This document shows positions 39,589 through 47,584 of a DNA stretch of 64,000 nucleotides, one piece after another. The notes beneath the pieces were generated by a model. It did no database searches. It saw nothing but the letters and a program-made list of their open reading frames with translations, and had not been told where the DNA came from. Position 1 is the stretch's first letter. Each line of letters opens with the position of its first letter. The position numbers were made by a program, and so were the translations under genes. The DNA is from Collinsella sp. AF02-46-1 (lineage in GTDB: Bacteria; Actinomycetota; Coriobacteriia; Coriobacteriales; Coriobacteriaceae): assembly GCA_934876235.1 (NCBI GenBank), contig CAKXKM010000001.1:832-64831 (forward strand), read 5' to 3'.

Positions 39589-39651
39589 ATGCAACGCGTA
39601 CTGTTTATCTGTCATGGGAACATCTGCAGATTCAGAAAAATGCCTAGCTAG
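39589..39651 (+). pseudogene. 5' remnant (20 codons) of a low-molecular-weight protein-tyrosine-phosphatase gene, truncated by the integrative element
   Basis: Encodes MQRVLFICHGNICRFRKMPS*, which matches the N-terminus of the intact PTP at 47138 (MRKILFVCHGNICRS...) up to the shared core CTGTCATGGGAACATCTG. Confidence 0.8.
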
Positions 39652-40239
39652 TTAGGATCCCGGCGAACCATATCGCGTACCTTACGACGTTTTTACGACT
39701 TTGAGCCCCGATGCGATATTGCCGTGATGGAGAAAAGCAACTCCTTTCGCCTTTCCCCAGTAGCTGAAGAACGGAGAATCGAGCATAAGCATTCCTTTCC
39801 GGTCGTCTCAAACCTCTGCAATTTGGAGGGTAAATCGCGAAAGCTAATATCTCAAACACCAGAAAAATCAAGTCGATGACCTCGCTCAACATTCACGACG
39901 CCCCACCATCGCATGCTAGTTACAAGAAGCGGATGCACTAGTATTCTTTCAATCGACTTGCAAACCCCTTCAAGCGTCCAACGCAATGGCGTGCTTTCAG
40001 ACGCAACGCCTCCTTGCGTCCGCATTATTGCTTTGTTAGACTCTACGGAAGAATTCAGCGCAGGCCCATATGCCAAGCCAGCGCCCCGGAAAGGAAAAGG
40101 ATTCGTGAAGCTGTAGACGATACATATCGACGCCAATTTGCAAATTGCCATCTATCCAAGAATAAATCTGGCCGCACATTTGTCGTATCGTCTTTTCACT
40201 GATCCTCGTATATCCTAAACACTACCTTTGCGAGCATTG

Positions 40240-40279
40240 CCGTCGACTCATTTTCTTTCAGCTTGACTCGAGTCGACGG
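40240..40279 (+). promoter_or_regulatory. stem-loop in the 5' leader of the ABC-F gene (candidate attenuator)
   Basis: A 10-bp perfect stem CCGTCGACTC / GAGTCGACGG with a 20-nt loop, about 75 nt upstream of the start codon. Confidence 0.3.
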
Positions 40280-40353
40280 GCGTTCACGTTGGTCGGAACG
40301 AGCCAATCAGAGCATATGCGGCAAAACGCGGCCTCCCATGCCGAGGAGGCACA

Positions 40354-41892
40354 ATGTCAAGAACCAATTTGAACAGCTCCACCACCCTCGTTCTTTCCCA
40401 TATTACTTATGCATATCCTGGCAGCGCAATGCCCGCACTCGACAACGTGTCGGCGACATTTGCCCCCGGCTGGCACGGCATCGTCGGAGACAACGGGTGC
40501 GGGAAATCAACTTTCGTCCGCATTGCGTGCGGACTTCTGATTCCAGATCGCGGCGTCGTTTCACCGCGTCTCGTCTCCGCATATTGCGCGCAAGAAGCCG
40601 GAGTCGAACCGCCCATGCTCTTCGATTTTGCGTGCGACTTCGCCCCGGCGACCACGCACCTCAGAAGGATGCTCCGCATCACCGATGATATGCTCTGGCG
40701 TTTTTCCGAGCTCTCCGGTGGCGAGCAGAAGAAAATTCAAATAGCCGTCGCGCTTTGGCAGAATCCCGATCTTCTGGCAATGGATGAACCGACTAACCAT
40801 GTGGACGCAGAATGCAGAAGGCAGATTTGCAAAGCACTCGCCGAGTACAAGGGTATTGGCCTCCTCGTCTCGCACGACCGTGCGTTGCTCGACTCCTTGG
40901 CAAAGGACTGCCTGTGCTTTGAGTCGGGGCACGTCACCATGCGCCCCGGCAACTACTCCCAAGCTCGCTCGCAGGCGAATCTGGAGCGCGAAAGCGCGGC
41001 GCGGGCCAAATCGATTGCGCGATCCAAAGAAAAGCGCATGAAGGCTGAGTATATCAGGCGCGTTGAAAACGCCTCACGGTCCGCATCCAAGAGAAGCGCC
41101 CGTCATGTCGATCCGAAGGATCACGACGCGAAAGCACGAATCAAACTCGCCATTCTCACTGGCAGAGACGGCGTTGCGGGCAAGCTCGCTTCGCGCATGG
41201 ACTCCCGAATCCAGCGCGCGCAAGCCGCCGTCGACGCCCACCATGTCGAAAAGCGCTACGAAAGCACCTTGTGGATGGAAGCGCAACCCAGCCCGCGCAA
41301 AACACTGATTCACGTCAGCTCAGATCGCATACCGTGCGGCCCGAGGCAATCTTTGCGGGTTCCCGAGATTTATCTGGGAAATACCGATCATCTGGGCATA
41401 AGCGGCCCCAACGGAGCGGGGAAAACAACACTGGTCAATCATATCCTGGAGATATTGGAAGGCCGCAAGGCCACGGGATTGGACATTCGCACGCTGTATA
41501 TCCCTCAGGAAGTCGACGATTCATCCTCAATTGAATTCCTCTCGGAAATCAAGGACCTGCCCCAAGCCGAACGTGGAGCCCTGCTTTCGATCGTTGCGCA
41601 ACTCAATTCGGATCCCGAACGAATATTGTCCGGCGAGAACATCAGCCCGGGGGAGCTGCGGAAGCTCATGCTCGCCCGCGGTATACTAGATGCCCCCGAA
41701 ATCATCGTCATGGACGAACCCACGAATCACCTGGACCTGCACTCGGTGGAGGCACTCGAGCGAGCGCTTTCCGCCTTTCCCGGCGCGCTTGTTTTGGTGA
41801 GCCATGACGAGCAGTTCCTCTCGGCCTCATGCCCCCTCCGCTTGGATTTGGCCCCAAAAGAGGAGCACACTATTGGTCAGCCCCTCCTCTAG
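40354..41892 (+). CDS. ABC-F family ATPase (two tandem NBDs, no TMD). Antibiotic-resistance (ARE) / ribosomal-protection type is likely.
   Basis: NBD1 has GDNGCGKST / LSGGEQKK / LAMDEPTNH. A basic about 70-aa interdomain linker follows (ERESAARAKSIARSKEKRMKAEYIRRVENASRSASKRS...). NBD2 has GPNGAGKTT / ISPGELRK / IVMDEPTNHLD. 512 aa, GGAGG Shine-Dalgarno. Confidence 0.8.
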   Translation: MSRTNLNSSTTLVLSHITYAYPGSAMPALDNVSATFAPGWHGIVGDNGCGKSTFVRIACGLLIPDRGVVSPRLVSAYCAQEAGVEPPMLFDFACDFAPATTHLRRMLRITDDMLWRFSELSGGEQKKIQIAVALWQNPDLLAMDEPTNHVDAECRRQICKALAEYKGIGLLVSHDRALLDSLAKDCLCFESGHVTMRPGNYSQARSQANLERESAARAKSIARSKEKRMKAEYIRRVENASRSASKRSARHVDPKDHDAKARIKLAILTGRDGVAGKLASRMDSRIQRAQAAVDAHHVEKRYESTLWMEAQPSPRKTLIHVSSDRIPCGPRQSLRVPEIYLGNTDHLGISGPNGAGKTTLVNHILEILEGRKATGLDIRTLYIPQEVDDSSSIEFLSEIKDLPQAERGALLSIVAQLNSDPERILSGENISPGELRKLMLARGILDAPEIIVMDEPTNHLDLHSVEALERALSAFPGALVLVSHDEQFLSASCPLRLDLAPKEEHTIGQPLL

Positions 41893-45705: not shown

Positions 45706-45750
45706 GGGCCCCGTGCGATAATCTTGAAATATCGCATCGGGGCTCTTTTC
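45706..45750 (+). terminator. hairpin plus T run downstream of rep. Its right arm is an exact inverted copy of an 18-mer near the element's left end.
   Basis: Arms are GGCCCCGTGCGATAAT and AATATCGCATCGGGGCTC, followed by TTTTC. The 18-mer GAGCCCCGATGCGATATT recurs at 39703-39720. Confidence 0.5.
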
Positions 45751-45771
45751 TGAACAGGAAGGAGCCTGCTA

Positions 45772-46977
45772 GTGACTGTGAGAAAAGACAGCAAAGGGCG
45801 AATCCTCAGACGCGGGGAAAGCCAGAGAAAAAACGGCCGTTACTGCTTCAAGTATGTGGATGCAAGAGGTAAAACGCGGAGCGTCTACTCGTGGACCTTG
45901 ACAACTCATGATCTAACTCCGAAGGGGAAGAAAGCCAGTCCGTGCTTGCGCGCGTTGGAGCATGAGATCCAGCGCGATCTGCTTGATAAGGTCGCGCCGA
46001 ACAATATGACAGTCTACGAACTCGCATCTCGTTACACTGAAACAAAGACTGCCGTGAAACAATCCACTCGAGCCGCCTACAAGACAATCCTCAATTTTCT
46101 TGCTACAGATGAATTCGGCTCGCGACGAATATGCGGTGTCACCTCCCTTGATGCCAAGGAATGGCTCATCAACCTGCAAAAAATCCACGGCAAGCGCTAT
46201 AGCACAATCCATAGCATCCGTGGTGTTCTGAGACCGGCGTTTCAACTGGCAGAGGAGAACAGCCTGATTCGCCGAAATCCCTTCTATTTCGAGCTCGCAA
46301 CGATACTGACAAACGACATGGTTACACGCAAGGCCTTGGCCACTAACCAAGAACGCAGATTTCTTGCTTTCGTGGAGGGCGATGAACACTTTCACCGCTA
46401 TCGTGACGCCATCTACATCCTTCTAAATACGGGCCTGCGCATTTCTGAATTCTGCGGTCTTACCGTCGAAGACCTTGATTTCAAAAACGGAAGCATTCGG
46501 GTAAACAAGCAACTTCAGCGGACCAGCAACATGCGATACTACATCGAACGTCCCAAGACGGAGAGCGGGATCCGCTATGTTCCCATGACTCAAGCCGTGA
46601 CAGAGTGTTTCAGGAGTATCCTTGCGCAACGTCTAAAGCCTTCGAGTGAGCCGGTCGTTGACGGTGTTAGCGGTTTTCTGTTTCTTGATAAAAACGAGAT
46701 GCCGCGTGTTGCCCTGCACTGGGAGAAGTACTTCCACCACGCGATAGAGAAACATAATCGCATCTACAAGGATGAGCTTCCCAAAATCACACCACATGTC
46801 TGCCGACATACCTTCTGCTCGAAGATGGCACGCAGGGGAATGAACCCTGCGAAGCTAAAATGCATCATGGGCCACTCCGACATCAACGTGACTTTTAACA
46901 CATACACCCATCTTGATTTCGACGACGTCAGAGAGGATATGCTGAAAATTGGATGCAAAGGACGGTCAACATTGTGA
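45772..46977 (+). CDS. int: tyrosine site-specific integrase, Tn916 Int family (with N-terminal arm-DNA-binding domain)
   Basis: The N-terminus RKDSKGRILRRGESQRKNGRYCFKYVD resembles the Int-Tn arm-binding domain. The catalytic region is HVCRHTFCSKMARRGMNPAKLKCIMGHSDINVTFNTYTHL (R..HxxR..Y). GTG start with an AGGAAGGAG Shine-Dalgarno. Confidence 0.85.
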   Translation: MTVRKDSKGRILRRGESQRKNGRYCFKYVDARGKTRSVYSWTLTTHDLTPKGKKASPCLRALEHEIQRDLLDKVAPNNMTVYELASRYTETKTAVKQSTRAAYKTILNFLATDEFGSRRICGVTSLDAKEWLINLQKIHGKRYSTIHSIRGVLRPAFQLAEENSLIRRNPFYFELATILTNDMVTRKALATNQERRFLAFVEGDEHFHRYRDAIYILLNTGLRISEFCGLTVEDLDFKNGSIRVNKQLQRTSNMRYYIERPKTESGIRYVPMTQAVTECFRSILAQRLKPSSEPVVDGVSGFLFLDKNEMPRVALHWEKYFHHAIEKHNRIYKDELPKITPHVCRHTFCSKMARRGMNPAKLKCIMGHSDINVTFNTYTHLDFDDVREDMLKIGCKGRSTL

Positions 46978-47137
46978 CAACAAGTCGTAAACCCTCGTTC
47001 TTTACGCAATTCTTACGACGCTGGAAAGAAAAATAATCCGCTCATTTATGAATCAATTTGATATTCTGTCCTTGACGAGGGATCAAAAAGCAGTGCGATT
47101 ATCTGCGAAAACTCTGATATTCGAGAGGTTTTAGCCA

Positions 47138-47584
47138 ATGCGCAAAATCCTATTTGTCTGTCATGGGAACATCTGTCGCTCGACGATGGCTGAGTCGGTG
47201 TTTGCCGAGCTGGTGCGCCGTGCTGGGCGCGAGGCGGAGTTCGTCATTGATTCTGCCGCGACCTCGACCGAGGAGATTGGCAACCCTCCGCATCATGGCA
47301 CCGTCGCCAAGCTGCGCGAGGTCGGGATTCCCGTCGTTGCGCACCGCGCGCGCCAGGTTCGTCGCGCGGAGTATGGTGACTGGGACCACATCGTCTATAT
47401 GGATGCCGAGAACGCGCGCGGCCTGCGTCGCATCTTCGGCGACGATGCCGACGGCAAGATTTCGCGGCTGCTGGATTGGACCGATCGCCCCGGCGACGTC
47501 GCCGATCCCTGGTACACCGGCAACTTCGATGCCACCTACCGCGATGTGCTCGCCGGCTGCACGGCCATGCTCGAGCAACTGTAG
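47138..47584 (+). CDS. low-molecular-weight protein tyrosine phosphatase (LMW-PTP/ArsC-like fold)
   Basis: P-loop CHGNICRS at the N-terminus and a DPWY motif; 148 aa. The first about 8 codons are low-GC (element-derived) and the rest is high-GC. Confidence 0.85.
   Translation: MRKILFVCHGNICRSTMAESVFAELVRRAGREAEFVIDSAATSTEEIGNPPHHGTVAKLREVGIPVVAHRARQVRRAEYGDWDHIVYMDAENARGLRRIFGDDADGKISRLLDWTDRPGDVADPWYTGNFDATYRDVLAGCTAMLEQL

Follow-up and report, generated by a model that had tools for sequence, protein, structure and literature searches.

The DNA analysed here, called the window, is a 64-kb stretch (64,000 nucleotides) of the genome of Collinsella sp. AF02-46-1 (Coriobacteriia, Actinomycetota; contig CAKXKM010000001.1, positions 832 to 64,831). 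At positions 39608-47175 it carries a discrete element inserted into the 5' end of a gene encoding a low-molecular-weight protein tyrosine phosphatase (LMW-PTP; the gene is termed ptp below). From left to right, the element comprises 727 bp without a convincing gene, an ABC-F ATPase gene, a small gene, an FtsK-like gene, a Rep gene and a tyrosine integrase gene (int). It was compared with 144 retrieved loci, which carry L numbers below. Host genomes were scanned at one genome per species, and metagenomes were scanned for the empty target site, attB, as predicted from the two separated parts of ptp (CTGTTTA-core-TCGCTCGAC). On these comparisons we consider with good confidence that the region is an integrative and mobilizable element (IME) of the Collinsella chromosome, which targets ptp, is designed to borrow a conjugation pore from elsewhere, and carries a damaged mobilization module.

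The element is bounded by two copies of the 19-mer TCTGTCATGGGAACATCTG, the attL core at 39608..39626 and the attR core at 47157..47175 (both on the + strand, located by a 19-mer search and by junction comparison), giving a core-to-core length of 7,549 bp. No further copy with up to two mismatches was found in the window, and none in 100 shuffled sequences. A first-pass annotation of this DNA had reported the direct repeat at these positions, and both copies are indeed there and unique in the window; its start for the element, 39609, is one base off. Similarity between the two core sites ends at ~26 bp with 2 mismatches, and outside the 19 bp they have CT-TTT- in common leftward and nothing rightward. 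The repeat is thus an attachment-site repeat and not a piece of a larger duplication. The attR core corresponds to codons 7-13 of ptp and codes for the CHGNIC portion of the CX5R catalytic loop. No Rfam match was obtained for 39000-48000, and no tRNA gene was found in the window.

Base composition follows these borders on one side. The GC content of the element is 54.1%, compared with 61.1% for the remaining window, and the element-borne sequence just before the right core (47090-47156) has 41.8% compared with 65.8% for the ptp body. The left flank, a sugar block made of phosphotransferase system (PTS), 6-phospho-glucosidase and RpiR genes (35430-39573), is as GC-poor as the element (54.5%), so that composition marks the right border and not the left. 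The low GC described in the first-pass annotation therefore stands relative to the rest of the window and to the ptp body, but not relative to this left flank. Note that the cumulative GC skew has its maximum at ~37-38 kb (~36000-39000 of the window), adjoining the insertion site; this peak could reflect a replication-related switch or merely local gene orientation.

The insertion has separated ptp from its native start and supplied a new one. On the left, the ATG at 39590 opens a stub, MQRVLFICHGNICRFRKMPS, followed by a stop codon; its reading frame starts MQRVLFICHGNIC, enters foreign DNA and ends after 20 codons (39590..39652, + strand). Translation and comparison with empty sites identify it as the native 5' remnant of ptp, reading MQRVLFI, then the core, then element DNA. 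Its 5' end (ATGCAACGYGTACTGTTTA) is the start of the intact ptp in empty-site contigs, and the native start in the metagenome attB contigs listed (ATG CAA CGY GTA CTG TTT A, i.e. MQRVLFI) matches it as well. On the right, comparison with related elements delimits an element-supplied ribosome-binding site (RBS; GAGAGG), an ATG at 47138 and the replacement codons MRKILFV (47123..47156, + strand). Since the element brings an RBS, an ATG and six codons, ptp remains intact, and the reconstituted gene (47138..47584, + strand) encodes a 148-aa LMW-PTP (PF01451, LMWPc, E 1.7e-33, residues 4-147). An equivalent RBS-ATG-six-codon cassette precedes the host-specific ptp bodies in all related elements. 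The gene remnant left of the first core and the right core lying within an intact phosphatase gene, both noted in the first-pass annotation, are borne out by these data. Its proposal that the element brings its own 5' end and promoter stood for the start codon and the six codons, to which the RBS can be added; the promoter lacks support, a consensus scan of 46978-47137 having found no promoter-like site. No terminator was found between int and ptp either, and read-through from int is an alternative to a promoter inside the element.

The cargo gene (40354..41892, + strand) encodes an intact 512-aa ABC-F ATPase resembling ribosomal-protection proteins, as judged from Pfam (two ABC_tran domains), NCBIfam and PDB matches. 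Its two ABC domains are joined by a linker and accompanied by no transmembrane domain, as in the antibiotic-resistance (ARE) type, and over its full length it is closest in the PDB to Lsa(A) and VmlR/ExpZ; the alignments to Lsa(A) and VmlR run from end to end. On NCBIfam model NF000355 it scores 300.4 bits, below the cut-off of 380, and the named subfamilies all score far under their cut-offs, so the protein is not assignable as a known resistance gene product. It may nonetheless protect ribosomes from antibiotics. The non-coding part to the left of this gene is the site of a separate, smaller insertion in some copies: a 365-bp segment resembling a miniature inverted-repeat transposable element, with TGTTAG...CTAACA terminal inverted repeats, ACGA flanks and 61% GC (L003 3757-4124), sits at the site matching window position 39898 in L001, L003, L004, L008 and L013 and is absent from the window copy.

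The three genes that follow make up the mobilization module, and each of them carries a lesion. The small gene (42600..42947, + strand, delimited by tblastn) is conserved at 115-118 aa in relatives and is a pseudogene here: a codon that specifies Phe or Tyr in the relatives is replaced by an in-frame TAA at 42693-42695. Its similarity to the intact homologues of L017 and L137 (69% and 55% identity, respectively, by tblastn) spans this stop. The FtsK/SpoIIIE-like gene (42948..44339, + strand; 463 aa; PF01580, E 4.7e-05) encodes a putative coupling protein of TcpA-like type with a hydrophobic N-terminus, as in TcpA. Alignment with L017 reveals a 15-bp in-frame deletion between two GGxAAGAC repeats (~43629-43637), which shrinks the Walker A motif from AGKTRSGKT to AGKT. 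The Rep gene, encoding a putative relaxase (44509..45699, + strand, from Pfam), is split within one frame into an HUH Rep_OBD part (PF01719, 44509-45030, E 2.8e-11) and a superfamily-3 RNA_helicase part (PF00910, 45091-45699, E 6e-09) by an in-frame TAG at 45028-45030, between nuclease and helicase, where the intact homologues of L011, L017 and L137 (395-399 aa) have Lys. Besides Rep and the FtsK-like gene, no mating-pore, type IV secretion or other transfer genes were found in the 7.5-kb element. Domain searches confirmed the ABC-F, FtsK-like, HUH Rep and integrase gene calls of the first-pass annotation.

The lesions, which the first-pass annotation had not noted, are not peculiar to the window copy. 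Every copy readable at the respective site has them (TAA, 12 of 12; Walker A deletion, 14 of 14; Rep TAG, 13 of 13), which establishes them by alignment as features of the clone and places their origin before its spread. Several ways in which such a damaged clone could still move are possible: the broken pieces may remain functional, the HUH domain alone being comparable to class-2 PF01719 relaxases; other elements may move it, in trans or in cis; or it may travel by other routes for which it needs its integrase only.

The integrase gene (45772..46977, + strand), next to attR as the first-pass annotation had placed it, encodes an intact 401-aa tyrosine integrase of the Tn916/Tn1549 type (PF02920, E 7e-28; PF00589, E 6e-32). 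Its catalytic region matches Tn1549 Int (6EMY, E 3.5e-76) and its N-terminus the DNA-binding domain of Tn916 Int (E ~5e-16). The gene is intact in all copies examined, and the 99% integrase cluster holds 561 member sequences. Many AT-rich sites serve Tn916 and Tn1549 as targets, and their coupling sequences vary. The present integrase shares with theirs the Integrase_DNA arm-binding domain, a homologous catalytic domain and the position of int at the element end; unlike them, its lineage targets a single conserved stretch of coding sequence, in which the 19-bp core is identical, and the same ptp site with a conserved core was found in all loci. Judged from this target choice, it seems to work like a lambda-type site-specific integrase. 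A repeat scan revealed candidate arm-type binding sites at both ends of the element: two TTACGAC repeats 11 bp apart on the P' arm (39682..39699, + strand), and GTCGTAA, TTACGC and TTACGAC repeats just 3' of the int stop on the P arm (46984..47019). Four of the nine TTACGAC copies of the window lie within the two element ends (39682, 39693, 46984 on the minus strand, and 47013). Related elements have other short repeats directly after the int stop (TACACC-type, TTGTA/TACAAC-type or TTTACAG-type), which track the integrase lineage. The TTACGAC repeats are thus presented as candidate arm-type sites for the N-terminal domain of the integrase.

Empty target sites are present in gut-metagenome contigs. 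The predicted attB occurs in at least 119 metagenome contigs. Among the matches listed, at least 14 contigs have the exact empty site, in which the RpiR gene is contiguous with an intact ptp carrying a single core; in at least 50, a major facilitator superfamily (MFS) gene directly precedes ptp, the sugar block and the element both being missing; at least 19 have a DUF4143 ATPase gene upstream of ptp, and at least 19 another integrase there; and at least 17 are too short or unclassified. The first-pass annotation had proposed looking for empty sites and for a larger tandem duplication around the cores as checks on a recent insertion. Empty sites exist and the similarity of the cores stops at ~26 bp, so both checks favour insertion.

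In the one-genome-per-species scan, the integrase was found at 99-100% identity in at least 13 contigs, at the same site, most of them labelled Collinsella. Collinsella sp. AF02-46-1 (contig NZ_QSBV01000003) and TM10-22 (contig NZ_QSOC01000010) are cultured strains with the element. One locus (L001; SFFY01000062.1) belongs to a metagenome-assembled genome labelled Bacteroidales, and its IME has Collinsella-like flanks at 98-99% identity; given these flanks, the label is probably a binning error. In at least 15 loci, identity to the window copy amounts to 99.3-100% for the element, as against 90-100% for the ptp body and 89-99% for other flanking genes. Counted in 300-bp windows, mismatches at attR number 1-4 on the element side, and on the outer side 0 (six loci), 18 (two), 29-30 (three) or ~150, which amounts to unrelated DNA (two). 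The outer side of attL is unrelated DNA in three loci. In L006, L007 and L010, identity falls from ~99% to ~90% exactly at attR, and at attL the DNA to the left of the core is divergent or replaced in L002, L006, L008 and L140, the element to the right remaining ~99% identical. Together with the empty sites, these breaks establish, at the level of sequence comparison, a discrete insertion with junctions at the cores, in agreement with the site-specific integration into codons 7-13 of ptp that the first-pass annotation had put forward.

The same site is used by a family of related elements, also in other hosts. Integrases 76-77% identical to that of the window are found in L011, L012 and L017 (the last from Olsenella), 60% identical ones in L137 and L138 (NCBI names the same protein from Enorma phocaeensis), and a 53% identical one in L016 (Congzhengia, Clostridia). 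All of them lie 150-220 bp upstream of an LMW-PTP gene; L139 has the same 60% integrase with no ptp called beside it. The replacement starts of these related elements read MIKILFV, MHRILFV, MHGILFV, MVKILFV or MIKIMFV, followed by the core and the host-specific ptp body. In L017, L137 and L138 the FtsK-like and Rep genes are intact, as is int in L137 and L138, and the cargo differs; the cargo of this set includes a 1,047-aa open reading frame (ORF), a shufflon-like recombinase together with a type I restriction-modification system, and an aminoglycoside phosphotransferase. A second integrase lineage (63-67% nucleotide identity) inserts ~13 nt deeper into ptp, after CCGCTCGACGATG. Its elements (L057, re-oriented 3535-11922; also L135 and L044) have at their right end at least 80 bp of sequence resembling the native ptp upstream region, and they encode, as part of their cargo, a serine recombinase and a 539-aa protein resembling a helicase. 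As far as these alignments go, targeting ptp is characteristic of the integrase clade, and the use of this target across hosts can be regarded as established. We infer that selection holds the catalytic-loop core constant, as it does with tRNA genes, and so provides a target conserved across hosts.

Different islands also occur side by side at this site. Island B (~10 kb; L142 250-10400, L140 270-10416) encodes an HTH_3 regulator, an LPXTG-anchored BspA-type leucine-rich repeat (LRR) surface protein and several unknown genes, no transfer gene being recognised in it. Its integrase is 69-73% identical to that of the window and uses the same ptp site. Island B stands between RpiR and the IME in L140 and L141, and its left end follows the IME in L008; in L009, the IME is separated from ptp by a 1.3-kb acyltransferase segment. 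Tandem arrays are thereby established from assembled contigs, in both orders (B-IME and IME-B), with all internal junctions at the core. The island B copy in L143, for which the host allele was established from 13 empty contigs, has hybrid cores: positions 2 and 11 of its attL show the host base, and so do positions 14 and 17 of its attR; strand exchange thus maps between core positions 11 and 14. A C/T polymorphism at core position 14 gave no clean map of the exchange point for the IME, the side varying among loci.

At least four types of islands are therefore seen at ptp: the present IME, intact sister IMEs (carrying the aminoglycoside phosphotransferase or the type I restriction-modification system), the LRR-surface-protein island and the serine-recombinase/helicase island. 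A joint reading, possible but less likely than not, is that the DNA coding for the LMW-PTP loop is a docking site for otherwise unrelated islands of one integrase clade, and that the broken clone piggy-backs on other members. Intact sister IMEs recognising the same origin of transfer (oriT) could mobilise it in trans, or it could be carried in cis within tandem arrays.

Turning to the classification, the 19-bp att repeats, the empty sites and the identity breaks at the cores delimit a discrete element, and the Rep_OBD-RNA_helicase and FtsK-like genes, both damaged in this clone, represent its mobilization genes. The closest known type is IME_Class_4 of streptococci, which combines a PF01719-PF00910 relaxase, an optional TcpA and an integrase of the tyrosine type (Coluzzi et al, 2017; PMC5357655). 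As described there, streptococcal IMEs have a compact tcpA-rel-int order, the Rep-like proteins being proposed as relaxases and the FtsK-like ones being coupling proteins of TcpA type. The present element has the same PF01719-PF00910 pair, with an N-terminally hydrophobic FtsK-like protein encoded just upstream and the integrase downstream at the end of the block; by domains and gene order, it also shares with the streptococcal class the absence of mating-pore genes, site-specific integration in a conserved gene and tandem accretion. It differs in its host, which belongs to the Coriobacteriia (Actinomycetota) and not to the Firmicutes, in that no excisionase is recognised here between rel and int, and in that rel, tcpA and the small conserved gene are damaged in this clone. 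Its target differs as well, the LMW-PTP 5' end not being among the 17 streptococcal targets (PMC5357655).

The relatives of the two module proteins point in the same direction. When 72,556 plasmids were searched in translation with the intact FtsK-like protein of L017, 195 records matched, dominated by Enterococcus, Lactococcus, Staphylococcus and Streptococcus with a few Gram-negatives, and none from Streptomyces or its relatives. The Rep protein is 25-29% identical, over ~80-90% of its length, to Reps of 3.5-7-kb plasmids of Staphylococcus, Lactiplantibacillus and phytoplasmas. To our knowledge, Collinsella is not mycelial. Because of this Firmicutes-type FtsK-like lineage, the Rep type, the gene order and the non-mycelial host, we adopt the IME label and reject that of an actinomycete integrative and conjugative element (AICE) like pSAM2, which the first-pass annotation had given to the transfer and replication module.

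The mechanism that we propose on this basis is as follows. The tyrosine integrase would recombine the core of the excised form (attP) with the DNA coding for the (F)(I/V)CHGNIC catalytic-loop motif of an LMW-PTP gene. The RBS, ATG and six codons at the right end of the element would substitute for the displaced native start, leaving the phosphatase intact, and the native start would remain as the 20-codon stub at attL. With a TcpA-like coupling protein and a Rep_2/S3-helicase relaxase, and no pore genes, the element would transfer by borrowing the conjugation pore of another element. Excision and conjugative mobilization are steps that we infer, as is a resistance phenotype of the cargo.

Several observations weigh against the mobile IME just described. 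The three common lesions argue that the clone is unable to mobilise itself; searches of the small ORFs of the element and its relatives (Pfam up to E 5, PHROGs) recognised no excisionase; and the predicted attP junction (CCTATTTG-TCTGTCATGGGAACATCTG-CAGATTCAG) was found neither in IMG/VR viral contigs nor in the 144 loci. In L001-L004, L013 and L015, 99.7-100% identity runs past attR into ptp and orf109, in some into pdxK, reaching ~1.9 kb further with variable end points, and the empty-site ptp alleles are at most 93% identical to the window allele among the matches listed. Given this near-identity past attR and the lack of a close empty allele, part of the spread probably took place by homologous recombination of larger segments and not through the integrase. 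Finally, the relaxase role of PF01719-PF00910 proteins is a proposal and not an experimental result (PMC5357655).

Taken to its end, this line of argument yields a dead island: a single site-specific insertion, now immobile, which spread solely by homologous recombination of the flanking chromosome after transformation, transduction or chromosomal conjugation. The inactivating-looking lesions, the identity extending beyond the element and the missing attP junction all suit it. We nevertheless judge it unlikely, as the identity in L006, L007 and L010 drops exactly at attR and the integrase gene is intact in every examined copy. Moreover, in L008, L009, L140 and L141 the same lesioned clone meets unrelated DNA exactly at the core, and unrelated DNA abutting the core on either side is not explicable by homologous recombination.

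The Rep similarity raises another question, namely whether the element is an integrated rolling-circle plasmid in which Rep would mainly initiate replication and the FtsK-like protein would serve in segregation or translocation. The 25-29% identity to small-plasmid Reps speaks for it, and FtsK-like genes of this kind also occur on 4.4-kb Streptococcus thermophilus plasmids. We consider this quite unlikely, because all relatives found are chromosomal with the integrase beside ptp, and a megablast comparison of the element with PLSDB gave no match, i.e. no free plasmid resembling it in that database. Note that the two roles are compatible, the MobT relaxase of ICEBs1 being reported to do both (PMC5357655).

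AICEs such as pSAM2 and pMEA300 have Reps of the RepSA, RepAM or prim-pol type and integrate in tRNA genes. That the element is a self-transmissible AICE, whose FtsK-like protein would pump double-stranded DNA and whose Rep would replicate the excised circle, is very improbable even though the Int, Rep and FtsK-like triad resembles the AICE core and the host phylum is the same: the Rep type (PF01719-PF00910, akin to small plasmid Reps of Firmicutes and phytoplasmas), the lineage of the FtsK-like protein (Firmicutes-type hosts and a few Gram-negatives, no Streptomyces, in the 195 plasmid records), the target, the compact IME gene order and the host lifestyle all differ, no Spd, Nudix or Kor spread and regulatory genes were found in the element by ORF and domain searches, and TraB transfer of double-stranded DNA is described only for mycelial actinomycetes (PMC5704250).

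For the IME, the replacement of a gene 5' end has clear precedent. In the dusA islands of Proteobacteria, insertion takes place inside the gene's 5' end, the island brings the new 5' end and the old one stays behind as a stub (Farrugia et al, 2015; PMC4482086). The present element shares with them the 5'-end insertion, the replacement start that keeps the gene intact and the stub at the far border; it differs in host, target and cargo, and the dusA islands include prophages and have had their excision demonstrated by PCR. The dusA integrases have been named as a family of their own (PMC4482086). IMEs located at either the 3' or the 5' end of tatD, ebfC and guaA are also reported (PMC5357655), so the unusualness relative to tRNA targeting suggested in the first-pass annotation was overstated. 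Elements are also known to accrete at one common att site, among them cis-mobilizable remnants that lack an integrase (Pavlovic 2004 and Bellanger 2011, as cited in PMC5357655). The arrays described above agree with it in that islands with related integrases stand head to tail, with hybrid internal att sites and in both orders; they differ in that neither array partner has recognisable conjugation genes. A tyrosine integrase that replaces a gene 5' end is therefore no conceptual surprise, and what is new to the type, per the literature found, is the target gene and the host group. No report of LMW-PTP as an integration target was found in the open-access literature, including IME papers, and one IME review lists a single IME from Actinobacteria, with a canonical relaxase.

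These features bear on resistance-gene ecology and on genetic tools. Collinsella is mentioned in studies of the gut microbiome (PMC13532179). That many of its lineages share a near-identical island of 7.5 kb with an ARE-like ABC-F gene is of relevance for the ecology of resistance genes in the gut, and if the ABC-F protein protects ribosomes from drugs of the lincosamide, streptogramin, pleuromutilin or macrolide classes, the island would be an unrecognised route for a gut resistance gene. The integrase clade marks the LMW-PTP 5' end as a predictable hot spot, where islands are to be expected in Coriobacteriia and some Clostridia. As attB is a motif coding for an active site, it is highly conserved, and the integrase is for this reason a candidate tool with which to insert DNA into poorly tractable gut Actinomycetota.

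Other features of the surroundings are given for completeness. One Collinsella contig (L011) has two LMW-PTP genes, at 2744-3223 and 7225-7671, both with the CHGNICRS core sequence; the first encodes a 159-aa paralogue beside an acyltransferase and an ArsB/NhaD-like permease, and the second, which comes after a Rep-Int remnant, codes for the usual 148 aa. Just 3' of ptp in the window lies an inverted repeat (47626-47756) with 58-nt arms and 2+2 copies of GAGCGTGGATAATCTCCC; in many related contigs a ~1.6-kb DUF4143/AAA_14 ATPase segment, absent from the window, is located exactly at its right edge (47748-47752).

To the left of the element, the sugar block (35430-39573; PTS EIIBC, family-4 6-phospho-glucosidase and RpiR) has, besides its GC content of 54.5%, a conservation of 97-99%, above that of the surrounding core genes, and it is missing from 69 of the 119 related metagenome contigs among the matches listed. 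A weak ptp-like string at ~35333 prompted the idea that this block is an older insertion at the same core. We rejected it, since an alignment of the empty-site types puts the right border of the block just upstream of the ptp RBS (GAAAGG) and not in the core. The spacer that separates the MFS gene from the end of the PTS gene (35367-35425) contains two near-identical copies of TTTCGTGTATTTCA(G/A)ATACACG; each of them has an internal palindrome and could be an operator.

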